30,793 nucleotides of DNA from Planctomycetota bacterium. GTDB lineage: Bacteria > Planctomycetota > PUPC01. Position numbers and translations under genes: made by a program. The stretch is from contig JAWODX010000614.1 in the NCBI GenBank assembly GCA_046483085.1, positions 1 to 30,793 of the forward strand, given 5' to 3'. Within the stretch, counting starts at the first letter, position 1; each line of letters starts with the position of its first letter. This document shows, one piece after another, positions 9,590 to 25,864 of this stretch. The notes beneath the pieces are model-generated. The model did no database searches, had not been told where the DNA came from, and saw only the letters and a program-made list of their open reading frames with translations.

Positions 9590-11041
9590 CTATCCGCCAG
9601 ACCTGCCGGGAGGCTGTCCGGAAGGGGAGGATGCCGGAGATTCTTTCGGGGAGGGCAGGGGGAGTTGGACGGTGAAGACGGTGCCGCAGTCGCCGTTGGG
9701 CCGGGCGTCGATGGAGCCGTCGTGCAGGTCGACGATCCGCTTGCAGATGGCGAGCCCGAGCCCGGTCCCCTCTCGGAACCACTCCTTGGCGTTCTGGGCG
9801 CGGTAGAACTCGTCGAAGATTTTGCCGGCGGCCTTTTTGCTGATCCCGATGCCGGTGTCGGCGACGGCGAGCCGGGCTTGGTGGTCGCGCCGTTCGAGCG
9901 TGACGTCGATCCGCCCGCCGGACGGCGTGTACTGGATGGCGTTGGCGACGAGGTTGGTGACGAGCTCGCGGAGGAGTTCTTCGTTGCCGGGGACGGAGAG
10001 GGGTTGGCAGGTGCAGGTCAGGTCGAGCCCGGCGGCGCGGGCGCGCTGCTTCATCAGCTCGACGGTGCCGGCCGCGACGGCGCCGAGGTCGACGGGCTCG
10101 GGGCGGAACACCTCCTCGGCGGCGCGGAGCCGGGAGTAGCGGAGCAGGTCATTGACGAGTTCCATCATCCCCTGGCAGCGCTGCTTGGCGCGGTCGATCA
10201 GCGAGCTGCGGCGGGGGCCGAGGTCGTCGCTGATGTGGGCGAGTGCGTCGAGGATGCTGTGGATGGCGCCGAGCGGCGCGCGCATTTCGTGCCCGGCCTT
10301 GCGCATGAAAAAGCTCTTCGTCCGGTCGGCGGCGCCGAGTTGGTGGTAGGCGTCTTCGAGTTCGGCCTCGCGCTGTCGGAGCCGGGCGGCGATGGTCGAG
10401 GCGACGAAGACGAGGGCGAAGATGGTGACGGTCAGCGCCGCGGTCACGTGCAGCACGTAGAGCGGGTCGGCGAACCGGTCGGCGCCGGCGGCCGCGCCCC
10501 GGCCGGCGAGCTCGACCCGGACGTGGGGGAGGATGCCCTGCTGCTCGCCCCAGGCGACGACGTTGAGCATGAGCGCGGCGACGCCCGCCGTGGCGTAGGC
10601 GACGCGCTGCGGCAGCAGCTCGGTGACGATGACGACCGGGACGAGGATGAGGATGGCGAAGAAGTTCTCGACCCCGCCGGTCCGATGGATGAGGAGCGAG
10701 ATGGCGATGAGGTCGCAGACGAGCTGGAGCAGGCCGATCGACTCGGTCAGCCGCCGGGTGATCCGCCGGCGGGCGCGGATCACGCGCACGACGAGGCTGA
10801 AGACGGCGTTGTAGAGGAAGAGGAAGAAGACGACGTGGACGGCGGGCGCGACGGTCAGCCGCTCGCCGACCCGGAACCGGATGTCCAGGCCGTACCAACT
10901 GACGAGCAGCAGCAAGAGGCAGAAGAGGCCGAACACCCACCGGACCTGGGTGAACCACCGCAGCCGGTCGAACAGCTCGCGGTCGGTGATGCTGAGCCGG
11001 CCGTCGCTCGGCGTGGACGCGCTCTCGGGTGTGTCGGACAT
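9590..11041 (-). CDS. Membrane-bound sensor histidine kinase (about 6 TM, HisKA plus HATPase_c)
   Basis: H-box 'AGHEMRAPL', N-box 'NLVANAIQY', G1 'DTGIGI', F 'IFDEFYR', G2 'GTGLGLAI'. Start placed at ATG 11041. Confidence 0.92.
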   Translation of the reverse strand: MSDTPESASTPSDGRLSITDRELFDRLRWFTQVRWVFGLFCLLLLLVSWYGLDIRFRVGERLTVAPAVHVVFFLFLYNAVFSLVVRVIRARRRITRRLTESIGLLQLVCDLIAISLLIHRTGGVENFFAILILVPVVIVTELLPQRVAYATAGVAALMLNVVAWGEQQGILPHVRVELAGRGAAAGADRFADPLYVLHVTAALTVTIFALVFVASTIAARLRQREAELEDAYHQLGAADRTKSFFMRKAGHEMRAPLGAIHSILDALAHISDDLGPRRSSLIDRAKQRCQGMMELVNDLLRYSRLRAAEEVFRPEPVDLGAVAAGTVELMKQRARAAGLDLTCTCQPLSVPGNEELLRELVTNLVANAIQYTPSGGRIDVTLERRDHQARLAVADTGIGISKKAAGKIFDEFYRAQNAKEWFREGTGLGLAICKRIVDLHDGSIDARPNGDCGTVFTVQLPLPSPKESPASSPSGQPPGRSGG

Positions 11042-11051: not shown

Positions 11052-11060
11052 ATCATACCA
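11052..11060 (-). promoter_or_regulatory. Extended -10 element for the histidine kinase
   Basis: Minus strand TG-G-TATGAT ending 10 nt before ATG 11041; no SD visible. Confidence 0.4.
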
Positions 11061-11119
11061 TGTGGTCCGGCGGGGCGCGCAAAGAAAATCGGTTCGGGCG
11101 GCGCGCGGTCGGGGCCGAG

Positions 11120-11141
11120 AATTGTGAAAAATTTCGCAATT
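11120..11141. promoter_or_regulatory. Palindromic operator, Rex-box/CRP-like
   Basis: AATTGTGAAAAATTTCGCAATT; core TTGTGAA-N4-TTCGCAA is one mismatch from the Rex consensus TTGTGAA-N4-TTCACAA. Confidence 0.65.
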
Positions 11142-11145
11142 CCCC

Positions 11146-11174
11146 TTGACGCACCCCGGCCCCGTCCGTATAGT
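11146..11174 (+). promoter_or_regulatory. sigma70 promoter of the hydrogenase operon
   Basis: TTGACG (11146-11151), 17-bp spacer, TATAGT (11169-11174). Confidence 0.8.
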
Positions 11175-11349
11175 ACGCCCAATCAACAAGCTGGATCGGC
11201 AGGAGTCGCGGGCGGGCGCGAGCGGAACGACCGATGCCGACCCGCTCCTGCCGGAGACAATCGGGTTCCGTACGACGCGGTAAGAGGGGCAGCGGAGCAA
11301 GTCGCGCCCCTCGGTTCGTTGTGCCTGTTCATCTATGGGAGGCGGGCAC

Positions 11350-12393
11350 GTGACCACGTACTGCCTGGACCCGCAGCAGCTGGCCGACGCTCTGGCCGAG
11401 AAAGAGGGGATCGTCACATTCGCGCCCGTCCCCACCGAGGGGATGAGCTGGCTGGGGATCGGCGTGGCGGAGCCGGACCCGTCGGCGCTCCGCGAACCGC
11501 GCAGCGCCCAGAGCCCCAAGGGCGCCGTCTTCCCCGCCTCGGAATCCGTCGGCCGCTACGGCCCGAAGGCCGGGACCGCCACCGACACGCTCCCCAAGTC
11601 CATCGTCCTCGTCGGCGTGCGCGCCTGCGAACTCCGCGCCATCCGCTACCTCGACCGCGTGCTGCTGGAGGGCGATTTCGAGGACCCGCCTTACCGCCGG
11701 CGCCGCGAGGCGACGACCCTCGTCGCCTGCGACTGCACCGGGCTGGCCGAGACCTGCGCCTGCACCCTCGTCGGAGGGCAGCCGTATCCCAACGAGGGCT
11801 ACGACGTCAACCTCACCCCGCTCGACGACCGGTTCCTCGTCGAGGTCGCCACCCCGAAGGGCGAGGCCTGGCTCGAGAGCGTCGGGCTCACCGATCTGGC
11901 CGAGGCCGGCGAAGACGAGCTGGCCCGGCGGGACGAGCAGCGGGCCGAAGTCGCCCGCCGCGTCGAGGAGCAGAACGCTGAGTTCGAGGTCCGCGCGTCG
12001 GACGACACGCCGGCGCCCCTGCCGGACGACGCCGCCGAGAGCTGGAACCGGTTCGCCGCCGACTGTGTCGAGTGCGGCGCCTGCACGCACATCTGCCCCA
12101 CCTGCCACTGCTTCTACCTCTACGACCAGGCGCTGGGGCCGGAGGAATTCGAGCGGCTGAAGACCTGGGACAGTTGCCTGTGGAGCACGTACCACCGGAT
12201 GGCGGGCGGCGCGGGCATGAAGCTCAGCCCGCGCCCGCGGCTGGCCAGCCGGCTGGCCAACCGCGTGCTGCACAAGTTCGTCTATTCGCCCCAGCAATAC
12301 GAGCTCCTGGGCTGCGTGGGCTGCGGCCGGTGTGTCGACGCCTGCCCCGGGGCCATTGACATTCGCGAGGTGGTAAGGGAACTGGCCGAATGA
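11350..12393 (+). CDS. AsrA/HydB (sulfhydrogenase beta)-like 4Fe-4S protein
   Basis: GTG start after GGAGG. 'GVRACELRAI', 'CVECGACTHICPTCHCF', 'WDSC', 'CVGCGRCVDACP'. Confidence 0.88.
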   Translation: MTTYCLDPQQLADALAEKEGIVTFAPVPTEGMSWLGIGVAEPDPSALREPRSAQSPKGAVFPASESVGRYGPKAGTATDTLPKSIVLVGVRACELRAIRYLDRVLLEGDFEDPPYRRRREATTLVACDCTGLAETCACTLVGGQPYPNEGYDVNLTPLDDRFLVEVATPKGEAWLESVGLTDLAEAGEDELARRDEQRAEVARRVEEQNAEFEVRASDDTPAPLPDDAAESWNRFAADCVECGACTHICPTCHCFYLYDQALGPEEFERLKTWDSCLWSTYHRMAGGAGMKLSPRPRLASRLANRVLHKFVYSPQQYELLGCVGCGRCVDACPGAIDIREVVRELAE

Positions 12394-13208
12394 CTGCGGA
12401 AGAGTCGTACCTGCCGACGCCGGCGGAGCTGGTCGAGGTGATCGACGAGACGCCGACGATCCGGACGCTGATCGTCGAGCCCGAGGAGCCGCTCGAATTC
12501 AAGGCCGGCCAGTTCGTCCAACTGACCGTCCCCGGCCGCGGCGAGGCGCCGTTCACCCCGTCCAGCTCCCCCAGCCAGCCCGACCGTATCGCCGTCACCG
12601 TCCTGCGCACCGGGAAGATCACCGACGAGCTGCACGAGGCGAGCGTCGGCGAGACGCTGGGCATCCGGGGGCCGTTTGGCAAGGGGTACCCGCTGGAGAA
12701 GCTGCCGGGGAAGGACGTGCTGATCGTGGGCGGCGGGGTCGGCCTGGCGCCGCTCCGCGCCCTCATCTTCGCCCTGCTCGAAGACCTGAGCGAGATCCCC
12801 CGCGTCAGCATCAAGTACGGCGCCCGCTGCATGGAGGAGCTGCTCTTCAACGACCAGTACGACGGGTGGGCGGAGCACCCGAAGGTCGACTTCACCTGCA
12901 CGATCGACCGGCCGCAGGAGGGCTGGACCGGGCGGACCGGGGTCGTCACCACCCTGCTCAAGGGGGTCGACGTCCACATCGGCAACTGCCTGTCGTTCGT
13001 GTGCGGGCCGAGCATCATGCTCAAGTTCACCACGATGGCCCTGGAAGAGGAGGGCTTTGCGCCGGAGCAGATCTACCTGTCGATGAACCGGCGGATGTCT
13101 TGCGGAAAGGGACTTTGCGGCCGCTGCAACATCGGGCCGTATTACCTGTGTAAAGACGGACCGGACATCAACTACGCGCTGATCAAGGGCTACCCCAACG
13201 TGTTCTAG
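12390..13208 (+). CDS. AsrB/HydG (sulfhydrogenase gamma, PyrK-like) FAD/NAD(P)-binding 2Fe-2S subunit
   Basis: 'FKAGQFVQL', 'GIRGPFGKGY', 'VGGGVGLAPL', 'CGPSIM', 'MSCGKGLCGRC...CKDGP'; ATGA overlap with the upstream gene. Confidence 0.92.
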   Translation: MTAEESYLPTPAELVEVIDETPTIRTLIVEPEEPLEFKAGQFVQLTVPGRGEAPFTPSSSPSQPDRIAVTVLRTGKITDELHEASVGETLGIRGPFGKGYPLEKLPGKDVLIVGGGVGLAPLRALIFALLEDLSEIPRVSIKYGARCMEELLFNDQYDGWAEHPKVDFTCTIDRPQEGWTGRTGVVTTLLKGVDVHIGNCLSFVCGPSIMLKFTTMALEEEGFAPEQIYLSMNRRMSCGKGLCGRCNIGPYYLCKDGPDINYALIKGYPNVF

Positions 13209-13280
13209 CCGCGTGAGCCGGGCCGGGCGCCGCGTCGGTCGCTCGCCCGGGTCCCCCTGGTCGACGCCGGGAAAAGCCCC

Positions 13281-14900
13281 GTGCCTGGAGCCGAAGAAAG
13301 CCGTGACGTCCGCAGTCGATGCGTCCTCTGCCCCGCCGGCTGCGAGCTCGGGCTCGCCCCGAGCGGGCCGGACCGGTGGCGGACCGCGTACCCCCTGACC
13401 GACGACGCCGGGCTCTGTGCCCGCGGCTCCGTCGTCGGCGAGCTGCTCGGCCATCGCCGCCGCATCCTCGACCCCGCCGTCCACGAGGACGGATCGCGCC
13501 GCCGCGTCGGCCCCGACGACGCCCTGCGAGCGGTCCTCGACGCCGCCGGCGAGAAGACCCTGACCGTGCTGCTCGACGGCAACCTCCCGTGCGAGCAACT
13601 GGCCGAGGCCGTCGCCCGGCTCGACGCCTGGCCCGCCGGGCGCCTCTGCCTGGTCGTCGAACCCGTCGACCGCGAGCTCCTGCTCGGCACCGAGGAGAGC
13701 GGCGCCGACTACCTGCGGAACGACGGGCTGGCCGACTGCGACGGGTTCCTCCTCGTCGGGGACGTGTTCGCCGCGAACCCGCTGTGTGCGCGGCCCGTGC
13801 TCGACCGGCACCGGGCCGAGCCGAGGACGCCGATCGCCGCGCTGGACCCGGCCGGCGGGGCGGTCGTGAAATTCGCCTCGCACCGGGTCGACGTCGCCCC
13901 GGGCGGCGAGCTGGCCGCGCTCCGGGCGCTGGCGGCGGCCGCCGGGCTGAATGTCGACGCGCCGGACGTCCCCTCGGCCGCCGCGGCCGGGGCGGCCCTC
14001 GCCGACTGCGAGCGGCTGGGCGTCCTGCTCGCCGCCGAGTGCGCGCGGACCGACAACTGGCGCGCCATCGGCCGGCTGGCCGGCGACCTGGCGAAGGCCC
14101 GCGGCGGCGGCGTCGCCGTCCAGACGAACGGCGCGAACGCGCTGGCCGCCGTGCGCGTCGAGGCGGCGGAAGGGACGATCCCGCTGGCCGACGCGCTGGC
14201 CGACGAGAGCGACGTCAAGGTCGCCGTGGGCTGCGACGTCGTCGGGATGCTGGGGCGGGACGACGTTGCCGTCGCCGCCGCGGCCGCCGCCCTGCCGAAC
14301 CGGACGACGCAGGCGGCGGGGATTGTGCTCCCGCTCGCACTCCCCGGCGAGTACGGCGGCACGTATCTGCTCGACGGGGCGCGGCCGGCGGAGGTCGGGC
14401 CGCTCATCGACCCGCCGGCGGGGATCGAGACCGCCGCCGCGCTCGTGGCGGCACTGGCCCGCGCCGCGGGAGCGGCCGAGCCGGCGCCCCGGACGCAGGA
14501 CATCGTGCCCGGCCGCGTGGCCGGCGGGGACGCGCCGGCCGAGACGCCCGCCGCCGAGCACGCCTCGCTCGTCCTCGTCCTGGCGCGCCGGGCGGCGGAC
14601 GGCGGGTGCGGCGCGCTGACGGGCCACGCGAGCTGGCGGACGTCGGTCGATCCGCTGCCCGAGCTGGCGATGGCGCCCGACGACGCCGAGCAGGCCGGCC
14701 TGTCGAACGCGGCGGAGGTGACCGTCGAGACCGACCGCGGGCAGCTCCGGGCGCGGGTGCGCCTGGCGCCCGAGGTGCGGCCCGGGGTGTGTGTGCTGCC
14801 CGAGGGGCTGCCGGCCGCCCGGGCGCTCGTCTCGTCGGAACTCGATCCGGACCACCATCGCGTCGTGGCGCCACCGCGACCTGTCACAGTGAGCGAATAG
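13281..14900 (+). CDS. Divergent molybdopterin-oxidoreductase (FdhF/NuoG-like) homologue lacking the Mo-ligand motif
   Basis: N-terminal 4Fe-4S motif 'CVLCPAGC...LCARG'; 'LADCDGFLLVG...NP'; 'LPLALPGEYGGTY'; C-terminal molybdopterin-dinucleotide-like domain 'MAPDDAEQAGLSNAAEVTVETDRGQLRARVRLAPEVRPGVCVLP'. Confidence 0.75.
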   Translation: MPGAEESRDVRSRCVLCPAGCELGLAPSGPDRWRTAYPLTDDAGLCARGSVVGELLGHRRRILDPAVHEDGSRRRVGPDDALRAVLDAAGEKTLTVLLDGNLPCEQLAEAVARLDAWPAGRLCLVVEPVDRELLLGTEESGADYLRNDGLADCDGFLLVGDVFAANPLCARPVLDRHRAEPRTPIAALDPAGGAVVKFASHRVDVAPGGELAALRALAAAAGLNVDAPDVPSAAAAGAALADCERLGVLLAAECARTDNWRAIGRLAGDLAKARGGGVAVQTNGANALAAVRVEAAEGTIPLADALADESDVKVAVGCDVVGMLGRDDVAVAAAAAALPNRTTQAAGIVLPLALPGEYGGTYLLDGARPAEVGPLIDPPAGIETAAALVAALARAAGAAEPAPRTQDIVPGRVAGGDAPAETPAAEHASLVLVLARRAADGGCGALTGHASWRTSVDPLPELAMAPDDAEQAGLSNAAEVTVETDRGQLRARVRLAPEVRPGVCVLPEGLPAARALVSSELDPDHHRVVAPPRPVTVSE

Positions 14901-14901
14901 G

Positions 14902-15447
14902 ATGCCGACCCAGGAGCAGGAGACGATCGAGAAACGCGTGTTCGTGGACATGGACCGCTGCATCGAGTGCGGGTCGTGTGCGGCGGCGTGTTACTACAGC
15001 CACGCGGACATGCCCGCGGTGCAGCAGGCGCGGGCCGGCTGGGCGCTGCTCCCGGTGATCTGCCGGCAGTGCAAGTCGGCCCCGTGCGTCGACGTCTGCC
15101 CGGCGGAGGCGATGGTCCGGGACGACCAGGGGGTCGTGCGCCGGCGGCTGTTCCGCTGCATCGGCTGCGGGTCGTGCGCCCGGGCGTGTCCGTTCGGGGT
15201 GATCACGACGACGCTGGGGGGGACGCCGGTGGCGTGGAAGAGCCCGGACCGGCTGACCGGGCACCAAGTGGCGAAGTGTGACCTGTGCGCGGACCGCCTG
15301 TCGGAGCATCCGGACGCGGTCCCCCGGTGTGTGGCGGCGTGCCCGGCGGGGGCGCTCGTGTTTGTCGACGCCCGCGCGGCGCCGGCGGAAGGGATCAAGG
15401 TGGTGGGCGGCCGGACCGCCGCCGAGGACTTCTACAAACGCAGGTGA
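14902..15447 (+). CDS. HycB/HyfA/CooF-like 4x[4Fe-4S] electron-transfer protein
   Basis: 'CIECGSCAAAC', 'CRQCKSAPCVDVCP', 'CIGCGSCARACP', 'KCDLC...PRCVAACP'. Confidence 0.9.
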   Translation: MPTQEQETIEKRVFVDMDRCIECGSCAAACYYSHADMPAVQQARAGWALLPVICRQCKSAPCVDVCPAEAMVRDDQGVVRRRLFRCIGCGSCARACPFGVITTTLGGTPVAWKSPDRLTGHQVAKCDLCADRLSEHPDAVPRCVAACPAGALVFVDARAAPAEGIKVVGGRTAAEDFYKRR

Positions 15448-15451
15448 GCCA

Positions 15452-16402
15452 ATGGACGTGCCCTGGGCGTTGATTGCGTTTCTGGCCGCCGGCGCCGGGA
15501 CCCTCGTGCTCGGGCTCCTGCTCCGGTGGCTGGACCGGAAAGTGACGGCGCGGGTCCAGTGGCGGAAGGGCCCGCCGATCTACCAGACGTTCGCCGACGT
15601 GATCAAGCTGCTGGGCAAGGAGAACCTCATGCCGGCGAACGCGCGGGGGACGGGCTTCCTGCTCGCCCCGGTGCTCGCCCTGGCGGCGACGGCGGTGGCG
15701 GCGACGCTCCTGTGGACCGCGCTGCTCAGCCCGGGCACCACGTTCCTCGGCGACCTGATCGTGGTGATCTACTTCCTGGCCGTGCCCGCCATCATGACCA
15801 TCGTGGGCGGCGGGGCGAGCGGGAACCCGCACGCCTCGGTCGGCGCCAGCCGCGAGATCAAGCTGCTGATGAGCTATGAGCTGCCGCTGTTCATCGTCAT
15901 CCTGGTGGCGGTGGCTCACAGCGGCTGGACGTTCCAGCTCGGCGGGCTGCTCGCCGCCCAGCAGGCGGGCGCGCCGGTCGTCTTCCGCCTGTCCGGCGTG
16001 CTGGCCCTGGTCGTGGCGATCGTGTGCATGCAGGCGAAGCTGGGGCAGGTCCCGTTCGACCTGGCCGAGGCGGAGTGCGAGATCATGTCCGGGGTGTACG
16101 TCGAGTACTCCGGCCCGTCGCTCGCGTTCTGGATGATGACGCGGGCGATGCTGCTCGCCGTGATGCCGCTGTTGCTGATCATCGTGTTCTGGGGCGGGCT
16201 GACCCCGACGGTCCTCGGTGTGCTGGCGTTCGTGGGGAAGTACGTCCTGCTGGTGGCGCTGGTCACGTTGATCCGGAACACGAATCCGCGGCTGCGGATC
16301 GACCAGACGGTGCGGTTCTTCTGGTTCGTGCTCACCCCGCTCGCCGTGGTCACCATCCTGCTGGCGCTGATCGGGCAGGGGAAGGAGCTGCCGTGGCTGT
16401 GA
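15452..16402 (+). CDS. NuoH/HycD/MbhM-like membrane subunit
   Basis: 'DRKVTARVQWRKGPP..Q.FADVIKLLGKE', 'GASREIKLLMSYE', 'PFDLAEAECEIMSGVYVEYSG', 'PRLRIDQ'. Start at ATG 15452. Confidence 0.92.
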   Translation: MDVPWALIAFLAAGAGTLVLGLLLRWLDRKVTARVQWRKGPPIYQTFADVIKLLGKENLMPANARGTGFLLAPVLALAATAVAATLLWTALLSPGTTFLGDLIVVIYFLAVPAIMTIVGGGASGNPHASVGASREIKLLMSYELPLFIVILVAVAHSGWTFQLGGLLAAQQAGAPVVFRLSGVLALVVAIVCMQAKLGQVPFDLAEAECEIMSGVYVEYSGPSLAFWMMTRAMLLAVMPLLLIIVFWGGLTPTVLGVLAFVGKYVLLVALVTLIRNTNPRLRIDQTVRFFWFVLTPLAVVTILLALIGQGKELPWL

Positions 16403-16854
16403 AGACCTGGTGCCGGGAGCTGTGGAAGCGGGCGTTCGCCAAGTCGCTCTGGGTGTATCACGTGAACACCGGTGCGTGCAACAACTGCGACATCGAGGTG
16501 CTCGAGCTGCTCACGCCGCGCTACGACGTCGAGCGGTTCGGGATGGTGCTCGTCGGCTCGCCCCGGCACGCCGACGTGCTCGCCGTCACCGGGTCCTGCA
16601 CCCGGCAGGCGATGCCCCGGCTGCAGGAGGTCTACATGCAGACGGCGAAGCCCTGCGCCGTGCTGGCCATCGGGTCGTGCGCCCTGCACCAGGGCATCTT
16701 CGCCGAGGGATACCACATGGGCGCGACGGTCGACGAGACGATCAAAGCGGTCGACCCGAATGCGATCATCATGTACGTGCCCGGCTGCCCGCCGAAGCCG
16801 GAGGCGATGATCTCGGCCGCCGCCCAGGCGATGGAACTGATCAAGACGTTGTAG
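16393..16854 (+). CDS. [NiFe]-hydrogenase small subunit (HycG/MbhJ/NuoB-like)
   Basis: 'TGACNNCDIEV', 'YDVERFG', 'SPRHADVLAVTG', 'GSCA', 'PGCPPKPEA'. GTG start at 16393 (SD AAGGAG) or 16399. Confidence 0.92.
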   Translation: MAVKTWCRELWKRAFAKSLWVYHVNTGACNNCDIEVLELLTPRYDVERFGMVLVGSPRHADVLAVTGSCTRQAMPRLQEVYMQTAKPCAVLAIGSCALHQGIFAEGYHMGATVDETIKAVDPNAIIMYVPGCPPKPEAMISAAAQAMELIKTL

Positions 16855-16878
16855 AGGGAGGACGGAGGACATCCGACG

Positions 16879-18627
16879 ATGACCATCACGACGACAGAGA
16901 CAGAGGTCCCCCTGCAGGGCTTTGTCGGGGAGGTGCTGGAGCGGCTCGGCGACGCCGTGGTCGAGGTCGAGACCTGTGACGAGCGGCGGGGGTTCGCCCG
17001 GATCGACCCGGCGCGGACCGCCGAGGTCGCCGAGACGATGCTCGCGATGGAGGGCGCCCGGCTGGCCACGGCCAGCGGCGTCGACGTGCGCGACGGGATC
17101 GACGTGCTCTACCACTGGGCGTTCGAGCCGCAGGGCGTCGTGGTCACCCTCAAGGTGCTCGCCGAGCGGCCGGACCTGGAGGTCGAATCGGCCGCCAACG
17201 CCGTCCCGGCCGCTAACTGGATCGAGCGCGAGATGCACGACCTGCTCGGCGCGAACTTCCGGAACCATCCCGACATGCGGCGGCTCATCCTCGACGACTC
17301 GTGGCCGGAGGGGGTGTACCCGCTGCGGAAGGACTTCGACCAGGTGGCCGACCGGCCGCCGCTCCCGCCCCGGCAGACGGAGCCCGACGCGGACCCGCCG
17401 CTCCCCCGCGACCCCGGCCCCGGCGTCAAGGGGCAGGTCAAGCACCGCGACCTGAAGGTCGTCAACATCGGCCCCTTCCACCCGCTCCAGGAAGAGGCCG
17501 AGTTCTTCCAGCTCTACGTGGACGGCGAGACGGTGGTCGACGTCGACATGCGGACCAGCTACAACCACCGCGGGATCGAGAAGATCGACGAGTCGAAGAC
17601 GTTCGACCAGGTCCCGTTCGTCGTCGAGCGGGTCTGCGGCATCTGTTCGGCCAGCCATCCGCTGGCCTACGTCCAGGCGGTCGAGGAGATCGCCGAGGTC
17701 GACGTGCCCGAGCGGGCGCTCTACCTGCGGACCATCGTGAACGAGCTGGAGCGGCTCCACTCGCACATGCTGTGGGTCGGCCTGGCCGGCCACTTCCTCG
17801 GGTACAACACCGTGTTCATGTGGGCGTGGAAGTACCGCGAGCCGGTGATGGACATCCTGGAGATCGCGACCGGCAGCCGGGTCAACTACGCCAACTGCAA
17901 GGTGGGCGGCGTCCGGCGCGACATCACCGACGAACAGCTCCGCCAGATCGACCAGGTCTGCACCGAACTCGTCGAGCCGCTCGAGATGCTGACCCACGCG
18001 GTGCTCGACGACCCGGTGCTCCACGCGCGCCTGAAAGGCGTGGGGATTCTCAGCCCGCAGGCCGCGAAGGAGTTCGGCGCGCTCGGGCCGACGGCCCGCG
18101 GCAGCGGCGTGCCCATCGACGTGCGCCGCGACGACCCGTACGCCGCGTACGACCGCGTCGACTGGGACGTCTGTACCCAGCCGAAGGGGGACGTGTTCGG
18201 CAAGGCGGTCGTCCGCCTGCTCGAATGCCTGGAGGCGGTGAAGATCATCAAGCAGTGCGTGCAGGACCTGCCCGGCGGCGAGATCGACGCGAAGGTCGAG
18301 GCCATCCCGCCCGGCGAGGGCGTGGGGCACGTCGAGGCGCCGCGCGGCGAGACCTTCCACTACGTGCGCAGCGACGGCTCGAACCGCCCGGTCCGCCACA
18401 AGGTCCGGGCGCCCAGCTTCAACAACGTCCCCACGTTCAAGGCCTCGTGCATTGGGCAGCGGATCCCCGACGTGGCCATCACCCTGGCGAGCATCGACCC
18501 GTGCTACTCGTGCACGGAGCGGATGTGCGCCGCGGTGGACGCCGACACGGGGGTCCGGCTGTACACGTTCCAGGACCTGGTTCGCCTGTCGCAGCAGAAG
18601 ACAAGAGAGCTGCGCGAGAAAGGGTAG
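16879..18627 (+). CDS. Group 4 [NiFe]-hydrogenase large subunit fused to a NuoC/MbhK-like domain (HycE-type architecture)
   Basis: NuoC part 'NWIEREMHDLLG...HPDMRRLIL...YPLRKDF'; 'NHRGIEK'; L1 'ERVCGICSASH' (17626-17658); 'VEAPRGETFHY'; L2 'DPCYSCTER' (18496-18522); 34-aa C-terminal extension. Confidence 0.95.
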   Translation: MTITTTETEVPLQGFVGEVLERLGDAVVEVETCDERRGFARIDPARTAEVAETMLAMEGARLATASGVDVRDGIDVLYHWAFEPQGVVVTLKVLAERPDLEVESAANAVPAANWIEREMHDLLGANFRNHPDMRRLILDDSWPEGVYPLRKDFDQVADRPPLPPRQTEPDADPPLPRDPGPGVKGQVKHRDLKVVNIGPFHPLQEEAEFFQLYVDGETVVDVDMRTSYNHRGIEKIDESKTFDQVPFVVERVCGICSASHPLAYVQAVEEIAEVDVPERALYLRTIVNELERLHSHMLWVGLAGHFLGYNTVFMWAWKYREPVMDILEIATGSRVNYANCKVGGVRRDITDEQLRQIDQVCTELVEPLEMLTHAVLDDPVLHARLKGVGILSPQAAKEFGALGPTARGSGVPIDVRRDDPYAAYDRVDWDVCTQPKGDVFGKAVVRLLECLEAVKIIKQCVQDLPGGEIDAKVEAIPPGEGVGHVEAPRGETFHYVRSDGSNRPVRHKVRAPSFNNVPTFKASCIGQRIPDVAITLASIDPCYSCTERMCAAVDADTGVRLYTFQDLVRLSQQKTRELREKG

Positions 18628-18634
18628 AGGTGGT

Positions 18635-20569
18635 ATGAACGGGATCGTCGAGGTGGTCACCCATCCGCTGGTCTGGCCGATCGCGGCGGCCGCGCTGGCC
18701 GGGCTGCTGGCGACCGTCCTCTCCCGGTGGTCGGCCTTCGTCTGCAAGGTCCTGGCCCTCGCGGCCAGCATCTGCGTGCTGGTGGGCGGGATCACGCTGG
18801 CGGGAGCCGGGGCACTCTCCGAGCGCTGGGTCTGGGTGGAGGGCCTGGCCGAGAACGTCTCGCTCGTCGCCCATCTGGCCGTCTCGCCGCTGGGGCTGCT
18901 GGTGATGATCGCGTCGGGCGGGTTCGGGCTCCTGATCACGCTGTACAGTTTCCGGGACATGGCGGGGGCCGATTTCGAGGGCCGGTTCTACGCGTACCTG
19001 ACGTGGACGCTGGCGGGCGCGTGCGTGGTCGCCCTGGCGGGCAACCTGCTCGTCCTGCTCGTCGGCTGGGAAGTGGTCACCCTCATGCTCTTCCTGATGG
19101 TCAACCAGGGCCGGGAGGGCGCCGAGGCGGGGGCGATGAAGGCGTACGGCGTGCTCGGCTTCGCCGACGCCTGCCTGCTGCTCGCGGTGGCGCTCCTGGT
19201 CTCGCTGAAGGGGGGCACGGCGAACCTCGTCCTGCGGTCCGAGCCGATGACCGTCTCGGCGATGGGGGCGACCGGGTACGTGATCTACGCGCTCCTGCTC
19301 GTCGCCGCGCTGGCCAAGGCGGGCGCCGTTCCGCTCCACACGTGGATCCCGGACATCGCCGAGAAGGCGCCGACGCCGGTGATGGCGCTCGTGCCGGCGG
19401 CCCTCGACAAGCTGCTGGGCATCTACCTGCTGGCGCTCGTCGTGCTGCGGATGTTCCGGCCGGACTGGACGATGCAGGTGGTGCTGATGGCGATCGGGGC
19501 GGTGACGATCCTCAGCGCCGTGCTGATGGCGATGATCCAGCACAACCTCAAGCGGCTGCTCTCGTTTCACGCGGTCAGCCAGGTCGGGTACATGGTGTTG
19601 GGGATCGGGACCGGGACGGCCGTGGGCGCCGTCGGCGGCCTGTTCCACATGCTCAACCACGCGATCTACAAGAGCAACCTGTTCCTGATGGGCGGGACGG
19701 TCGGCGACGCGGCGGGCAGCGACGAGATCGAGGAGATGGGCGGCCTGGCCCGGGCCCTGCCCGTCACGTTCGTGTGCGGTGCGATCAGCGCGGCGGCGAT
19801 CTCCGGCGTGCCGCCGCTGAACGGCTTCGCCAGCAAGTGGCTGGTCTACCAGGGTGCGCTGAAGGTCTCGGAGCAGCACGCGTCGCTCGCTCTGGCCGTG
19901 CTCGTGGTGGCGGTGTTCGGCAGCGCGTTGACCCTGGCGAGTTTCGTGAAGGTGATCTACTCGGCGTTCCTTTCCCCGCCGCCGCGCGAGAAGGAGCCGA
20001 TGCTGAAGACTGTTCGGGAGAGTGTGTGGCGGGCCGGACCGATGGTGGTGCTGGCCGCAGCCTGCGTGGTGTTCGGGCTGCGGCCGGGCCTCGTCACGAA
20101 CCGGATCCTCCCGTCGGCTGTCCCGGCCGCGACGGCGGCCATCTCGACGACGGAAGGGGCGCTGCGGACCGGCGACGTGGGCTACTGGAGCCCGACGCAG
20201 GCGACGGGCCTGATCCTGCTCGGGCTGGCGCTCGGCCTGCTCCTGCTCGGCCTGGTCAGCATGGGCAAGCGGGTGCGGGTGGTCCGGCCGTTCCTCGCCG
20301 GCGAGGTGCCCGCGCCCGACGACGACCGGTTCCGGTTCCCCGGCACCGGGTTCTATCTGACCGTTGCCCGGCTGCCGATCCTCGGGCCCTGGCTCGCCCA
20401 GGCCGAGGGCGGCGCCGTCGACCTGTACCACTGGTCGGGGCGGCACGGCAACACGTTCGTCCAGTTCCTCCGCCGACTTCACACCGGCCTCGTCAGCTTG
20501 TACGTCGCCTGGTGCCTGACGGGCCTGACCGTGATCCTGATTTATCTGCTGATGACCGCGAGGGGATGA
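18635..20569 (+). CDS. Antiporter-like membrane subunit (HyfB/NuoL/MrpA-type)
   Basis: 'LLVGWEVVT', 'KAGAVPLHTWIP', 'LKRLLSFHAVSQVGY', 'HMLNHAIYKS', 'GVPPLNGFASKW'; ATG 18635 after GAGGTG. Confidence 0.9.
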   Translation: MNGIVEVVTHPLVWPIAAAALAGLLATVLSRWSAFVCKVLALAASICVLVGGITLAGAGALSERWVWVEGLAENVSLVAHLAVSPLGLLVMIASGGFGLLITLYSFRDMAGADFEGRFYAYLTWTLAGACVVALAGNLLVLLVGWEVVTLMLFLMVNQGREGAEAGAMKAYGVLGFADACLLLAVALLVSLKGGTANLVLRSEPMTVSAMGATGYVIYALLLVAALAKAGAVPLHTWIPDIAEKAPTPVMALVPAALDKLLGIYLLALVVLRMFRPDWTMQVVLMAIGAVTILSAVLMAMIQHNLKRLLSFHAVSQVGYMVLGIGTGTAVGAVGGLFHMLNHAIYKSNLFLMGGTVGDAAGSDEIEEMGGLARALPVTFVCGAISAAAISGVPPLNGFASKWLVYQGALKVSEQHASLALAVLVVAVFGSALTLASFVKVIYSAFLSPPPREKEPMLKTVRESVWRAGPMVVLAAACVVFGLRPGLVTNRILPSAVPAATAAISTTEGALRTGDVGYWSPTQATGLILLGLALGLLLLGLVSMGKRVRVVRPFLAGEVPAPDDDRFRFPGTGFYLTVARLPILGPWLAQAEGGAVDLYHWSGRHGNTFVQFLRRLHTGLVSLYVAWCLTGLTVILIYLLMTARG

Positions 20570-20573
20570 TCCC

Positions 20574-21182
20574 ATGGGGATTGAGTGGCTGATTGTGGCG
20601 CTGATCGCGTTCATGCTCATGGCGGGCCTGATCGCCGTGGAGACACGCGACCTGCTCAGCTCGGTGATCGCCGTGGGCGCCGCCGGCTTCGCGCTCAGCA
20701 TCATCGACCTGCTGGTCGGGGCGCCCGACCTCGCGATCACCCAGGTCGTGGTCGAGGTCATCGCCCTGGTCCTGCTCATCCGCATGGTGGTGACGCGCGA
20801 GGACACGTCGTCGATCCGTTCGCGCGACGTACTCCGCACCGGGGCCATGCTCCTGGCCGCGGGGCTGATCCTCGTCGGCGCATACTTCGCCGTCCGGCCG
20901 GGCGACGAGGGCACGTTGCCGCCGTTCGGCGACCCGGTCCTGGCTCGGGATGCCGTGCGCGGGGACGACCAGGGCGTGAGCGAGGGATACCTGAGAAAGA
21001 CGGAGGAGCAGACGGGGGCGGCGAACGCGGTGACCGCGGTGCTGCTCGACTACCGGGCCTACGACACGCTGGGCGAGGCGACGGTGATCTTCGTCTCGAT
21101 CCTCGGTGTGTACGCCGTGCTCCGCCGGGTGGGCCGCAAGCGCGGTGAGGCGGGCGAAGAGAGCTGCGAGGGAGAGGCATGA
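20574..21182 (+). CDS. DUF4040 plus MnhB-N fusion (MbhD+MbhE-like; corresponds to the MrpA C-terminal part)
   Basis: 'GAPDLAITQVVVE' and 'NAVTAVLLDYRAYDTLGEATVIF'. Confidence 0.88.
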   Translation: MGIEWLIVALIAFMLMAGLIAVETRDLLSSVIAVGAAGFALSIIDLLVGAPDLAITQVVVEVIALVLLIRMVVTREDTSSIRSRDVLRTGAMLLAAGLILVGAYFAVRPGDEGTLPPFGDPVLARDAVRGDDQGVSEGYLRKTEEQTGAANAVTAVLLDYRAYDTLGEATVIFVSILGVYAVLRRVGRKRGEAGEESCEGEA

Positions 21183-21631
21183 TGAGCAGCAAGAGCGGCA
21201 TGACCTTGATCGTGAAGAACACGGCGCGGCTGGTGGCCGGGTTCATTGCCGTGTTCGGGGTGTACCTGGCGGCGACGGGGCACCTGTCGCCCGGCGGCGG
21301 GTTCCCCGGCGGGGTGATCCTGGCGGCGGCGGCCGTGTTGGTCGTGCTGGCATTCGGGAAGGACTTCGCCGGGCGCCTGCTGCGCGAGCCGCAGTGCCAC
21401 GTGTGGGACGCGGCGGGGGCGGGCGCGTTCCTGCTCGTCGCCCTGTGCGGCTATTTCGCCGGTGGGTTCTTCGCCAACTTCCTGCCTGCCGGCCAGGTCC
21501 ACACGCTGCAGTCGGCGGGGAGCATCCCGCTCTCCAACCTGGCGATCCTGGTCAAGGTGGGCGCGGGGCTCGCCGGCGCCTTCCTCGCCTTGTCCGCGTT
21601 TCGACTCGCTCTACCGAAGGGAGACGAGTGA
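21179..21631 (+). CDS. mnhB: Na+/H+ antiporter subunit B (MbhF-like)
   Basis: 'GHLSPGGGFPGGVILA'; ATGA overlap. Confidence 0.88.
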   Translation: MMSSKSGMTLIVKNTARLVAGFIAVFGVYLAATGHLSPGGGFPGGVILAAAAVLVVLAFGKDFAGRLLREPQCHVWDAAGAGAFLLVALCGYFAGGFFANFLPAGQVHTLQSAGSIPLSNLAILVKVGAGLAGAFLALSAFRLALPKGDE

Positions 21632-21632
21632 G

Positions 21633-21989
21633 ATGGGTGTGTCCGTCTACGTGCTGAGCATCGCCGTCCTGCTGGTGGGCATCTACGGCGTGGTGGCGAA
21701 AAAGAACGTGGTCAAGATCATCGTCGGGGTGCTGCTGCTCGACTACGCGGTCAACCTGTTCCTGGTGCTCGTCGGGTATCGGAGCGGCGGCACGGCGCCG
21801 ATCCTGGGCGAGGGCGAGACGGGCGCCGAGTTGGCGGCCCGGGCCGTCGATCCGCTCCCCCAGGCCATGGTTCTGACGAGCATCGTGATCGGGCTGGGCC
21901 TGACGGCCCTCATGGTGGCGATCGCCATCCGCCTGTACGAGAAATACGGGACGTTCGACGCCGATGAGATGCGGAAGCTGAGGGGCTAG
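21633..21989 (+). CDS. mnhC: Na+/H+ antiporter subunit C (MbhG/NuoK-like)
   Basis: 'KNVVKIIVG...AVNLFL', 'DPLPQAMVLTSIVIG'. Confidence 0.9.
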   Translation: MGVSVYVLSIAVLLVGIYGVVAKKNVVKIIVGVLLLDYAVNLFLVLVGYRSGGTAPILGEGETGAELAARAVDPLPQAMVLTSIVIGLGLTALMVAIAIRLYEKYGTFDADEMRKLRG

Positions 21990-21992
21990 ACT

Positions 21993-23495
21993 ATGGAATC
22001 GCTGGTGCCGCTGTTTGTGATCGTGCCCCTGGGCGTGGCGTTCCTCGTGGTCATCCTGGCCCACGTGCGGCCGCTCCGCCGGGTGGTCGGCCCCCTGTCC
22101 TTCGCGGCCATCCTGGCCAACGCGGCGCTCGCGATCTCCGTCCTGGGCGTCGAGATGGCCCCCCTGTACGTGGGCAAATGGAACCCCGATTCGGTGTTGG
22201 GCATCGCCATGGTCTGCGACGGGCTGGCGAAGCTCATGCTGGTGACGATCAACTTCGTGGCCGCGGCGGCGCTGATCTACGCGGGCGCCTACATGCGGCG
22301 GTTCACCAAGGTCTGGCTATTCTACGCCCTGTTCCTGCTGATGACCGGTGCGATGAACGCGGTGGTGCTGGCGGGCGACCTGTTCAACATGTTCGTGTTC
22401 CTGGAGATCGCGGCCATCTCGTCGTACGCCCTGGTCGCGTTCGGCTGCGAGTCGGAAGAGCTGGAGGCGGCGTTCAAGTACCTGATCATGGGGACGGTCG
22501 GCTCGGCCTGCATCCTGCTTGGAATCGCGGTTCTCTATTCGCTGACCGGGCAGTTGAATATGGCGCAGGTCGGCGGGCTCTTGGCGCGGGGCGCGGGCCC
22601 GGCCGCCTTGTTTGCGGCGGCGGCGCTGTTGGCCGGGCTGGCGCTGAAGGCCGCGATGGTCCCCTTCCACGCCTGGCTGCCCGACGCCCATCCCTCCGCG
22701 CCGGCGCCCATCTCGGCGATGCTGTCCGGCGTGTTGATCAAGGCGATCGGCGTATATGCGCTCGCGCGGATCGTGTTCAATGTGCTGGGGCCGACGGCGG
22801 AGTACAGCATGATCCTCGTCGTGCTTGGGGCCGCGTCGATGGTGATCGGCGTCTTCCTGGCGGTCGGCCAGTGGGACCTGAAGCGCCTGCTCGCCTATCA
22901 CAGCATCTCGCAGATGGGCTACGTCGTCCTCGCACTGGGTGTGGCGGCGGGGCTGGTGGCCGAGGGCGGGAGCCGCAGCGTCGCCGCGCTCTGCCTGCTG
23001 GGCGGGCTGTTCCACATGTTCAATCACGCGGCGTTCAAGAGCTTGCTCTTCCTGTCGTCCGGGTCCATCGAGCAGCAGACGGGGACGCGGATGCTGAAGC
23101 AGATGGGCGGGCTGAAGACGCGGATGCCGGTCACCAGCTTCTGCTGCCGGATCGGCGCATTGAGCATCGCGGGCGTCCCGCCGCTGAACGGCTTTTTCTC
23201 GAAGCTCATCATCATCGTCGCTCTGGTGCTGGCCGGGCGGCCGCTGCTGGCCGGGCTGGCCGTGCTGGTCGCGCTGATGACGCTCGTCAGCTTCACCAAG
23301 GTGCAGCGGTACGTGCTGGAGGGGACGCCGAAGCCGGCGGCGGCCCTGGCCCGCGAGGCCCCGGTGATGATGTGCGTGGCACTCGTCTTTCTCGCCCTGG
23401 TCTGCATCGGCGGCGGACTCGCCCTGTTCCCGCTCCGCGAGCACCTGTTCGGCCCGGCCGGCGAGGCGCTCCTGCGAGGGATCGGCGGACCGTGA
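21993..23495 (+). CDS. mnhD: Na+/H+ antiporter subunit D (MbhH-like)
   Basis: 'GDLFNMFVFLEI', 'EAAFKYL', 'LKAAMVPFHAWLPDAHPSAPAPISAMLSG', 'DLKRLLAYHSISQMGY', 'GVPPLNGFFSK'. Confidence 0.92.
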   Translation: MESLVPLFVIVPLGVAFLVVILAHVRPLRRVVGPLSFAAILANAALAISVLGVEMAPLYVGKWNPDSVLGIAMVCDGLAKLMLVTINFVAAAALIYAGAYMRRFTKVWLFYALFLLMTGAMNAVVLAGDLFNMFVFLEIAAISSYALVAFGCESEELEAAFKYLIMGTVGSACILLGIAVLYSLTGQLNMAQVGGLLARGAGPAALFAAAALLAGLALKAAMVPFHAWLPDAHPSAPAPISAMLSGVLIKAIGVYALARIVFNVLGPTAEYSMILVVLGAASMVIGVFLAVGQWDLKRLLAYHSISQMGYVVLALGVAAGLVAEGGSRSVAALCLLGGLFHMFNHAAFKSLLFLSSGSIEQQTGTRMLKQMGGLKTRMPVTSFCCRIGALSIAGVPPLNGFFSKLIIIVALVLAGRPLLAGLAVLVALMTLVSFTKVQRYVLEGTPKPAAALAREAPVMMCVALVFLALVCIGGGLALFPLREHLFGPAGEALLRGIGGP

Positions 23496-23508
23496 TCGGA
23501 GTCCTGGT

Positions 23509-23994
23509 ATGAAGTGGCTGATGTGCCTGTTGGCCGTGTTCGCCCTGTGGGTCCTCCTGTTCTGGTCGGTGGACGCGTGGGTGCTGGGCAGCGGCGCCTT
23601 CTTCGCCCTGCTCGTCGCCACCTTCCTCGGCGAGATCTACCCCGACCGCATGGACCGGGTGCTCGACCCCCGGCGCGTCTTCTTCTTCCTCGTCTACCTC
23701 CCCTACTTCTTCTACTGGTGCCTCAAGGCGAACCTCGACGTGGCCCTGCGCGTCATCCACCCCGATGTCCCCATCCGCCCGGGCATCGTCAAGGTCAAGA
23801 CCTCGCTCCGGACCGACATGGCCAAGACGTTCCTCGCCAACAGCATCACTCTCACGCCCGGCACACTCACCGTGGACATCGACGGGGACGACGTGTACGT
23901 GCACTGGATCAACATCGACACCGACGATGTGGAGCAGCGGACGAGCGAGATCTGCGGCCGGTTCGAGCCGCTGCTGCGGAGGATTTTCGAATGA
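23509..23994 (+). CDS. mnhE: Na+/H+ antiporter subunit E (MbhA-like)
   Basis: 'ANLDVALRV..P..PIRPGIV', 'LANSITLTPGTLTVD', 'YVHWI'. Confidence 0.92.
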   Translation: MKWLMCLLAVFALWVLLFWSVDAWVLGSGAFFALLVATFLGEIYPDRMDRVLDPRRVFFFLVYLPYFFYWCLKANLDVALRVIHPDVPIRPGIVKVKTSLRTDMAKTFLANSITLTPGTLTVDIDGDDVYVHWINIDTDDVEQRTSEICGRFEPLLRRIFE

Positions 23995-24257
23995 CCCTGT
24001 TCGTACAGATCGCATTCGCCGTGCTCCTGCTCGGCTCGTTCCTCTGCCTCTACCGCATCGCCCGCGGGCCCACCCCGCCCGACCGGACCGTCGCCATCGA
24101 CATCCTCGGCACCCTCGTCGTCGGCTTCTGTTGCCTCATGGCGCTGGGCACCGACCTCGAATACTACATGAACATCGCCATCGCCTGGGCTCTCATCAGC
24201 TTCACCGGCACGCTCGCTCTGGCCAAGTACCTGGAAGGCAGATCTTACGATGATTGA
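23991..24257 (+). CDS. mnhF: Na+/H+ antiporter subunit F (MbhB-like)
   Basis: 'RIARGPTPPDRTVAID', 'SFTGTLALAKYLE'; ATGA overlap. Confidence 0.9.
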   Translation: MTLFVQIAFAVLLLGSFLCLYRIARGPTPPDRTVAIDILGTLVVGFCCLMALGTDLEYYMNIAIAWALISFTGTLALAKYLEGRSYDD

Positions 24258-24645
24258 GACGATCGCCTGCTGGATTATCGGCGTCGGCCTCGCGTTCGAC
24301 CTGTTCGGCTGCATCGGCCTGGTCCGGCTCCCCGACGTGTACAACCGCGCCCAGGCCGCCACGAAATGCGTCACGCTCGGCACCTGCATGATCCTGGTCG
24401 GCGTGGCCCTCGCCGCCGTCGGGTCGGGCAACTGGCCGATGGCCGTCAAGGCGCTCATCTGCGCCTCGTTCATCCTCCTCACCAGCCCCGTCGGCGCCCA
24501 CGCCATCTGCCGCGGCGCCTATCTCTCCGGCGTCCCCCTGTGGGAGGGGAGCGTCGAGGACGCGTTCGAGCCGAGAGCCCGCACCATCCGAACCGAAGAA
24601 ACCCAGGAAGGACCCGCCCCCGATGCGGAAACCGAAACTGCGTGA
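24250..24645 (+). CDS. mnhG: Na+/H+ antiporter subunit G (MbhC-like)
   Basis: 'GLVRLPDVYNRAQAATKCVTLG', 'TSPVGAHAICRG'. Confidence 0.9.
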   Translation: MIETIACWIIGVGLAFDLFGCIGLVRLPDVYNRAQAATKCVTLGTCMILVGVALAAVGSGNWPMAVKALICASFILLTSPVGAHAICRGAYLSGVPLWEGSVEDAFEPRARTIRTEETQEGPAPDAETETA

Positions 24646-25240
24646 GCTCAAAGAGGCCGTCCGGTCCCTCCTCTCCCCGGCCTACACCACCCGGTTCCCC
24701 GCCGAACCCCACGTCCCGCCCGAGGGCTTCCGCGGCAAACCCGAGTTCCAGGAGGACGACTGCATCGGCTGCGCCGCCTGCGCCGAGCTCTGCCCCTCCG
24801 TTGCCATCAGCTACGTCGACGACGCCGGGGCCGATCCGCCGACCCGCCGGTTCGAGCTCCGGCTCGACAAGTGCATCTTCTGCGGCCAGTGCGAGCTCAA
24901 CTGCACCACCGAAAAGGGCATCAAGCTCACCGGCCAGTACGACATGACCACCCTCGACCGCTCCGAGTGCCGCGAGCGGATCGAACACGAGCTCGTCCTC
25001 TGCGAGGTCTGCGGCGCCATCGTCGGCACGCGCAAACACCTCCAGTGGGTCGCCGAAAAGCTCGGGGCGAAGGCGTACGCCAACCCCACCCTGATCGTCA
25101 CCGCCGACGGGACCATGCAGCTCGCCACGCCCGACGCCGGCCGGCCCGGCGAACCCGCACTCGCACGAAGCGACATGATGCGCGTCATGTGCCCCGCCTG
25201 CCGACGCACCACCATCGTCCGCGAGCTGTGGGGCGAGTAA
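24623..25240 (+). CDS. HycF/NuoI/MbhN-like 2x[4Fe-4S] subunit with an extra Cys-rich C-terminal domain
   Basis: 'YTTRFP', 'FRGKP', 'CIGCAACAELCP', 'CIFCGQCELNC', plus 'CEVCG...CPAC'. Confidence 0.92.
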   Translation: MRKPKLRELKEAVRSLLSPAYTTRFPAEPHVPPEGFRGKPEFQEDDCIGCAACAELCPSVAISYVDDAGADPPTRRFELRLDKCIFCGQCELNCTTEKGIKLTGQYDMTTLDRSECRERIEHELVLCEVCGAIVGTRKHLQWVAEKLGAKAYANPTLIVTADGTMQLATPDAGRPGEPALARSDMMRVMCPACRRTTIVRELWGE

Positions 25241-25257
25241 GGAGCTCGAACAAAACG

Positions 25258-25309
25258 GTGGGGCGGACATTCCTGTCTGCCGCGCAGCAGGCAAGAATGC
25301 CTGCTCCAC
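25258..25309. repeat. REP doublet copy 2 (opposite orientation), inside the operon
   Basis: GTGG-GGCGGACA-TTCC-TGTCTGCC-GCGC-AGCAGGCA-AGAA-TGCCTGCT-CCAC. Confidence 0.85.
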
Positions 25310-25336
25310 CAGAGTTCTGTTAGACGGCCTAAGCCC

Positions 25337-25864
25337 GTGACCTCCCCCGAACCCTCCTCCCCCGACCGGTCCGAGCCCGAGCGCCTGGCCGAATGGCTGG
25401 CCGAGGTGCTCCGGCCCTCGTCGGTGATCATCGGAATCGGGGACGAGCTTCGGGGCGACGACGGAGCGGGGGTCGCCGTCGCCCGCCGGCTGGCCGAGGC
25501 CGTCCCCTGGGCGGTCGTGGTCGGCGAAAACGCGCCCGAGAACTTCACCATGAAGATCGCCGCCCGCCAGCCGACCTCCGTCCTGCTGATCGACGCCCTC
25601 CACTTCGGCGGCCGCCCCGGCGGCGTCCGCGCCCTCGACCCGGCCCAGCTCGACGGCCGCGGCATCGGCACGCACGGACCCGGGCCCGACACCTTCCTCC
25701 GCGCCCTCCGCTCGCTCCACCCCTGCCGGCAGGTCGTGCTCGGCATCCAGCCGCTCGACACGAGCTTCGGCGAGGGCCTGACCGAGCCCGTCGCCGACGC
25801 TGTCGACGCCGTCGTCCGCGCATTCGAGCTCTGCGCCGAACGTCGTCGGCCCGGAGAGCGCTGA
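25337..25864 (+). CDS. hycI: Hydrogenase maturation endopeptidase (HycI family)
   Basis: 'IGIGDELRGDDGAG', 'GENAPENF', 'VLLIDA', 'GTHG', 'LGIQP...FGEGLTEPV'. Confidence 0.88.
   Translation: MTSPEPSSPDRSEPERLAEWLAEVLRPSSVIIGIGDELRGDDGAGVAVARRLAEAVPWAVVVGENAPENFTMKIAARQPTSVLLIDALHFGGRPGGVRALDPAQLDGRGIGTHGPGPDTFLRALRSLHPCRQVVLGIQPLDTSFGEGLTEPVADAVDAVVRAFELCAERRRPGER

Follow-up and report, generated by a model that had tools for sequence, protein, structure and literature searches.

Rex control of hydrogenases is established in Firmicutes. The Hun hydrogenase is widespread in subsurface and anoxic-sediment bacteria, and we know of no test of its electron donor or physiological role. Characterised Rex proteins bind DNA at low ratios of NADH to NAD+ and leave it on binding NADH (PMC5355995, PMC2883068, PMC13077300). 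In Caldicellulosiruptor bescii, EMSA demonstrated Rex binding at the promoter of the Ech [NiFe] hydrogenase operon, which has 19 genes, and Rex controls the ferredoxin-dependent Ech as well as pyruvate:ferredoxin oxidoreductase (PMC6391272). Rex control of CODH/ECH in Parageobacillus has been predicted (PMC13077300). The paper on the Hun supercomplex (Glass et al. 2021, bioRxiv 10.1101/536078) mentions neither Rex nor promoter elements, and our search of the published literature found no description of Rex regulation in Planctomycetes, nor of Rex linked to Hun.

Our analysis concerns a 30,793-nucleotide contig of a Planctomycetota metagenome-assembled genome (MAG), termed "the window" for the whole of its length. 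Between a sensor kinase gene and a divergent hydrogenase operon, the window contains an 18-bp inverted repeat that is very probably a Rex operator (ROP) controlling the promoter of a Hun-type hydrogenase.

Like the ROPs of Streptomyces, Staphylococcus aureus and Bacillus subtilis, the window site is an 18-bp inverted repeat (identical to TTGTGAA-N4-TTCACAA at 13 of 14 specified positions) in a promoter region, and the genome encodes Rex (PMC5355995, PMC2883068). The presence of a rex gene with a likely autoregulatory box, here called rex2, adds to this likeness. In contrast to those ROPs, the window box abuts the -35 hexamer from upstream instead of overlapping it, its promoter-proximal half-site is conserved in a non-consensus form (TTC-G/T/C-CAA), and its host is a Planctomycete.

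The locus also resembles the C. bescii Ech and [FeFe] Hyd operon and the predicted Parageobacillus CODH/ECH case, in which Rex boxes lie upstream of multi-gene operons for membrane-bound group-4 enzymes (PMC6391272, PMC13077300). The C. bescii site is located 147 bp upstream and is EMSA-positive, and rex is autoregulated in that organism (PMC6391272), whereas the window box is a prediction from sequence. The target differs from those of Caldicellulosiruptor and Parageobacillus in that it is of the Hun type, combines a full Mrp module with an NAD(P)H-type module resembling AsrA/AsrB, and occurs outside the Firmicutes.

The probable Rex operator and the predicted hydrogenase promoter

The coordinates of the principal features are collected in the table. 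The left half-site of the operator is identical to the Rex consensus, and the right half-site, TTCGCAA, has a single deviation. The assembly that was searched (G000) is a Planctomycetota MAG of 4.27 Mb in 651 contigs, with 68.6% GC and 85% completeness. Across all of it, the operator is the sole site with one mismatch or fewer to the Rex consensus, compared with 0.034 such sites expected from base composition. When the genome was scanned with a position weight matrix built from the sites of the clade, the operator ranked first with 30.1 bits. Ranks 2 to 4, at ~20-21 bits, went to an AT-rich contig-end site, the rex2 box and a box at a Hox-type hydrogenase operon, and all others scored at most 16.5 bits; this ranking is partly circular, because three of the top four sites belong to the training set.

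Table. Predicted features at the hydrogenase promoter in the window, and the second [NiFe] hydrogenase operon of the same assembly
Feature	Coordinates	Strand	Basis or content
Rex-type operator (ROP), predicted	11122..11139	.	TTGTGAAAAATTTCGCAA; consensus match and conservation
22-bp palindrome	11120-11141		AATTGTGAAAAATTTCGCAATT
Enclosing 24-bp palindrome	11119..11142	.	Inverted repeat with 11-nt arms, 91% complementary: GAATTGTGAAA at 11119-11129 and TTTCGCAATTC at 11132-11142
Predicted sigma-70-type promoter of the hydrogenase operon	11146..11174	+	TTGACG 11146-11151, 17 nt, TATAGT 11169-11174; 10/12 positions
hunA, first operon gene (AsrA/sulfhydrogenase-beta-like 4Fe-4S protein)	11350..12393	+	Pfam Fer4_22; NCBIfam AsrA/ShyB/HydB-like matches below cut-offs
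Remaining operon	12390..25864	+	Pfam assignments
Divergent sensor histidine kinase gene	9590..11041	-	HisKA, HATPase_c, PilS-like 6TM domain
Hox-type operon	C612:2360-6962 (loci L113, L151)		NuoE-NuoF fusion, one unannotated ORF, then [NiFe] small and large subunits (group-3)

A preliminary description of this DNA, made from the letters alone, had noted a 22-bp near-perfect AT-rich palindrome that ends 4 bp before TTGACG-N17-TATAGT, and the sequence reads as it claimed. The same description placed the site between two divergent promoters. A promoter scan of positions 10950-11450 recovered the hydrogenase promoter as its one sigma-70-like match, with 0.0 expected in shuffled sequence. However, no two-hexamer promoter was detected on the minus strand in this interval, where the second promoter can be read just as an extended -10 element. 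Thus, only the first of the two promoters stands as described.

This extended -10 element precedes the kinase gene and is conserved: it reads TGGTATGAT in G000, at about 11060-11052 (window 11041-11066), and its counterpart in G002, the closest relative that carries the site, reads TGGTATTAT (L004 1306-1330). The element lies just 8-10 nt before the ATG, which suggests that the kinase transcript has little or no leader.

For the hydrogenase operon, a leader of ~170 nt is predicted. At 11193-11253, its sequence includes a perfect inverted repeat of 9 bp, CGGCAGGAG / CTCCTGCCG, whose loop is 39 nt long, together with nested imperfect repeats. An Rfam scan of 10900-11500 with E values up to 1 returned no match, that is, no known riboswitch or leader RNA. 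The consensus patterns of Fur, NikR and sigma-54 were compared by eye with the operator region and gave no fit.

The likely start codon of hunA, as read from the sequence, is the GTG at 11350, with GGGAGG in front of it at 11337-11342. According to Pfam, the genes that follow encode an FAD/NAD-binding AsrB/gamma-like protein (HunB), a degenerate molybdopterin-domain protein, a HycB-like ferredoxin, NuoH-like and NuoB-like subunits, a fused NuoC/[NiFe] large subunit, antiporter-like and MrpB/D/E/G subunits, a NuoI-like ferredoxin and a HycI protease. An Oxidored_q6 match lies within the operon at 16477-16821. Both nickel-binding motifs of the large subunit are intact (RVCGICSASH and DPCYSCTER). 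The operon has the same HunA-HunB-(molybdopterin protein)-Fe-S-NuoH... architecture as the Hun supercomplex of bioRxiv 10.1101/536078, to which the rex and Rex-box linkage described here adds a regulatory layer. As judged by gene content, the operon is a Hun-type, Mrp-linked group-4 [NiFe] hydrogenase operon.

The spacing between operator and promoter is short. The 18-mer ends 6 bp upstream of TTGACG. If transcription starts ~7 nt past TATAGT, the operator would span about -59 to -42, with its centre near -50.5. Measured Rex footprints cover 23-29 nt, and the five mapped in S. avermitilis extend over -50..-22, -42..-16, -39..-17, -3..+25 and +108..+135 (PMC5355995). Because the predicted operator position lies upstream of all five (PMC5355995), simple occlusion of the promoter is less obvious here, and the mode of repression is the weakest link in our reading.

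Conservation of the box and its association with rex

The operator is conserved upstream of orthologous operons together with its spacing from the -35 hexamer. The relative G002 represents another genus of the same family, and its HunA is 67% identical to that of G000. Its upstream region has otherwise diverged from that of G000, and it carries TTGTGAAAAAGTTCGCAA followed by 6 bp, TTGACT, 17-18 nt and TATACT. The box is likewise followed by a 6-bp gap and TTGAC at loci L033 and L036, and by a 7-bp gap before TTGATC at L037; at L041, it is 15 bp away from a TTGTCA -35 hexamer. The arrangement of TTGAC at a 6-bp distance and then a -10 hexamer resembling TATAGT, TATACT or TGTAAT recurs in L040, L033 and L036. 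An ORF lies between the box and hunA at L037 and has no Pfam match.

We aligned G000 with five related genomes, three of which have the identical 6-bp gap and one a 7-bp gap. Outside the 18-mer (T-GTGAA-AA-TTC-CAA), the alignment has essentially no invariant columns. The distal half-site is the consensus in the aligned genomes except for TCGTGAA in L033. The promoter-proximal half-site deviates at one and the same position in all six genomes (TTC-G/T/C-CAA), and this conserved deviation should lower the affinity for Rex.

Among 61 relatives, the box was found before the operon in five genomes, all of which also have rex; the eight genomes that hold the operon and have no rex also have no box. 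Because these genomes are related, we attach no statistical claim to this pattern.

A profile search identified 80 further loci, almost all of which are Hun operons by gene order and whose labels represent about six phyla: Planctomycetota, Omnitrophota, Atribacterota, Latescibacterota, Auribacterota and others. A rex gene is located directly upstream of hunA, on the same strand, in 28 of the 80. A Rex-like box accompanies nearly all of these rex-headed hun operons; it is placed in the rex-hunA interval or 30-65 bp ahead of rex. Where enough upstream sequence was available (76 loci), boxes with two or fewer mismatches occur within 1.1 kb upstream in 27 loci, for a total of 28 sites. For comparison, block shuffles yielded 0.41 sites, and 240 kb of downstream sequence yielded 2.

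A recurrent variant box, TTGTGAATGTGAAC(A/T)CAA, precedes the rex genes of rex-headed hun operons by 40-65 bp at loci L054-L099, in MAGs labelled Sedimentisphaerales and Pirellulales. Many genomes share it in identical form, and it includes two TGTGAA units in direct orientation.

Candidate binders and further boxes in the genome

Two full-length rex genes were found in G000, encoding Rex1 (contig C436) and Rex2 (contig C442), which are 43% identical to each other. The two proteins score 266 and 236 bits with the NCBIfam model NF003995 (cut-off 126), and the equivalog NF003993 (cut-off 217) was also passed; thus both copies lie above the NCBIfam cut-offs for Rex. Rex2 aligns end to end with the solved Rex structures 2VT2, 3KEO, 5ZZ5 and 3IKT, which come from B. 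subtilis, S. agalactiae, T. maritima and T. aquaticus, with E values of 1e-37 to 1e-40. The alignment covers the recognition segment RKDFSYFG and the GxGxxG motif, which is GVGNIG in Rex2; Rex1 has GAGALS at this position.

In a tree of Rex proteins, Rex2 is sister (support 99/90) to a clade of 17 Planctomycetota Rex proteins whose genes head hun operons. Rex1 groups with the product of a G002 rex gene that is divergent from the hox operon of that genome. The phylogeny favours Rex2 as the protein that would bind the operator, and Rex1 is also a possible binder. A point against a firm choice between them is that G002 keeps the operator, while its two rex genes both fall outside the Rex2 clade and no member of that clade was found in it.

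Further Rex-like boxes occur in G000 at rex2 and at a second hydrogenase operon. The rex2 start codon is preceded, at a distance of a few bp, by the sole perfect match to TGTGA-N6-TCACA in the assembly, and this is likely the expected autoregulatory arrangement. After the window and rex2 boxes, the next-ranking intergenic box that adjoins a redox operon is that of the Hox promoter. This box, TTGTGAGAGGTTTCACGT, is located at C612:2402, has three mismatches, and lies 74 nt before the NuoE-NuoF fusion gene and downstream of a -35-like TTGATT hexamer. Orthologous Hox loci in G009, G002, G006, G017 and G021 have boxes at -80 to -182; two of these boxes are perfect, and none has more than two mismatches. 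A search with PF00374 found [NiFe] large subunits on C612 and in the window only; both detected [NiFe] hydrogenase operons thus carry a Rex-like box. One regulator appears to control Hun, the Hox hydrogenase and rex2 itself, to the extent that shared boxes can indicate this.

Gene contexts near these boxes provide additional observations. On the 3.5-kb contig C442, mnhE is located 13 bp downstream of rex2 on the same strand (C442:400-1565, locus L002), so that the pair resembles a fragment of a rex-headed Mrp or Hun-like operon. In G002, a rex gene divergently adjoins the hox operon (C27:33503-35737), and several other relatives have rex beside NuoF-like genes.

Most other sites in the genome with three or fewer mismatches are inside coding frames. 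Boxes before genes for a phosphoglucomutase, an M48 peptidase and a T2SS ATPase were dropped as unsupported. A site at C513:34 is at an AT-rich contig end, and a rubrerythrin gene follows ~700 bp later. C537 and C589 share an identical 18-mer that belongs to a longer repeated element and is probably not an operator. This near-identical intergenic element of ~42 bp (C537:16470-16515 and C589:6872-6917) contains TTGTGAATGAGACCACTA and is probably a repeat or the end of a mobile element.

The palindrome could instead be recognized by a protein other than Rex. One candidate is a regulator of the CRP/FNR family that senses cAMP, O2 or another signal and activates or represses the promoter. The operator does contain a CRP-type core, because TGTGA-N6-TCGCA matches TGTGA-N6-TCACA at 9 of 10 positions, and by our reckoning a centre near -50.5 would lie on the same helix face as class I/II activator positions. 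However, this core is common to Rex boxes and does not discriminate between the families, whereas the conserved flanks (TT...AA) fit Rex, and the same motif precedes rex genes in the clade. Moreover, the 85% complete G000 assembly has no match to HTH_Crp_2 (PF13545) or cNMP_binding (PF00027). In control genomes, these two domains match in 14 of 14 and 10 of 14, respectively, with HTH_Crp_2 found in every control. The 91% complete G002 has one sub-threshold CRP/FNR match of 22.6 bits in a 152-aa frame. A binder from this family, which the preliminary description had named as an alternative, therefore has no candidate in G000 and a sub-threshold match alone in G002, and we consider it extremely improbable.

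Alternatively, the site might be bound by another regulator, such as the response regulator that partners the divergent kinase, and serve chiefly the kinase gene or an activation of the operon through the kinase; its likeness to a Rex box would then be coincidental. In G000, G002 and L036, a divergent sensor kinase gene borders the intergenic region with the site, and the site lies upstream of the -35 box, the usual location for an activator. A histidine kinase is also inferred to belong to the Rex regulon of C. saccharolyticus (PMC6391272), and the two circuits might therefore be connected. Yet no response regulator gene is located beside the kinase among the window ORFs scanned. The distance from operator to kinase ATG varies, from 80 bp in G000 to 45 bp in G002, whereas the spacing to the hydrogenase -35 hexamer is exact, and at L033, L037 and L041, where the box persists, the available upstream sequence contains no match to a kinase. 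The variable spacing and the retention of the box without a kinase match indicate that the box belongs to the hydrogenase promoter. Moreover, hun operons of about six phyla are associated with rex genes and Rex boxes, a pattern that chance likeness cannot explain. We regard such a regulator as very unlikely. The kinase gene may also respond to the operator, but it is not the conserved partner of this element.

If the binder is Rex, the regulatory logic could still differ from classical repression, with Rex acting as an activator or anti-activator, or competing with an AT-rich UP element. A position of about -59 to -42 is atypical in comparison with mapped Rex footprints (PMC5355995), and evolution has preserved both the weakening of the promoter-proximal half-site and the strict 6-bp spacing. 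Against this, Rex has a repressor role, shown or predicted, in each of the Rex studies cited here (PMC5355995, PMC6391272, PMC13077300), the Hox box of the same genome is in the classical repressor position, and a footprint of 25-29 bp would still reach the -35 hexamer of the hydrogenase promoter. Departure from classical repression thus seems very improbable, and a Rex operator that represses the Hun promoter is the reading that we develop below.

Proposed regulation and its biological meaning

The preliminary description proposed that a Rex-type operator abuts the hydrogenase promoter. Its proposal is supported by the consensus match, the rarity of the site, its conservation, the presence of rex, the lack of a CRP/FNR candidate in G000 and the repeated association of hun operons with rex genes and Rex boxes. 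Each of the three sequence-based checks suggested there, on rex, on further sites and on orthologous operons, gave a favourable result. From these comparisons, and from the behaviour of characterised Rex proteins, we infer binding, the response to NADH, repression as opposed to activation, and the transcription start.

A Rex dimer would occupy the box while the NADH/NAD+ ratio is low. Its footprint, ~25-29 bp, would extend from about -64 to about -37 and abut the -35 hexamer. Bound Rex would then fill the position of the UP element and the alpha C-terminal domain (alpha-CTD), and RNA polymerase would be kept off the promoter. Occlusion of sigma region 4 together with the alpha-CTD/UP-element position is thus a possible mode of repression. 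When NADH builds up, as during fermentation without an electron acceptor, Rex would bind NADH and leave the DNA. The resulting derepression would allow the hydrogenase to be made and reducing equivalents to be disposed of as H2.

It was also suggested previously that control by Rex would support the complex acting as an NADH sink. Control in the service of redox balance does fit, since Rex control is consistent with the disposal of reducing equivalents as H2 and with the presence of the NAD-binding HunB. However, Rex also governs ferredoxin-dependent hydrogenases, as the Ech and CODH/ECH precedents illustrate, so that regulation by Rex, taken alone, is no proof of NADH as the direct electron donor.

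The Rex switch itself is ordinary, and its regulatory logic is well known. The modest addition made here is the linkage of rex and hun across phyla. We tentatively suggest, as a conjecture that we find plausible without considering it probable, that Hun operons are hard-wired to Rex in at least six phyla, headed by rex in about one third of genomes and elsewhere carrying a box that is served in trans, and that Hun is a dedicated redox valve responsive to NADH/NAD+. As part of the same conjecture, the rigid 6-bp geometry and weakened half-site of the window's lineage may reflect a distinct Rex mode, with occlusion of the UP element and alpha-CTD and a tuned affinity.

If this conjecture is true, the physiologically relevant input of Hun as a Rex-wired valve would more likely be NAD(P)H than ferredoxin. 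The conserved operator, together with rex genes that head one third of hun operons, suggests that Hun is made when NADH piles up. A testable expectation is that Hun would be induced under acceptor limitation, with H2 evolution serving as a redox valve. The boxes of G000 also provide what would be a first sketch of a Rex regulon in Planctomycetota, comprising both [NiFe] hydrogenases and rex.
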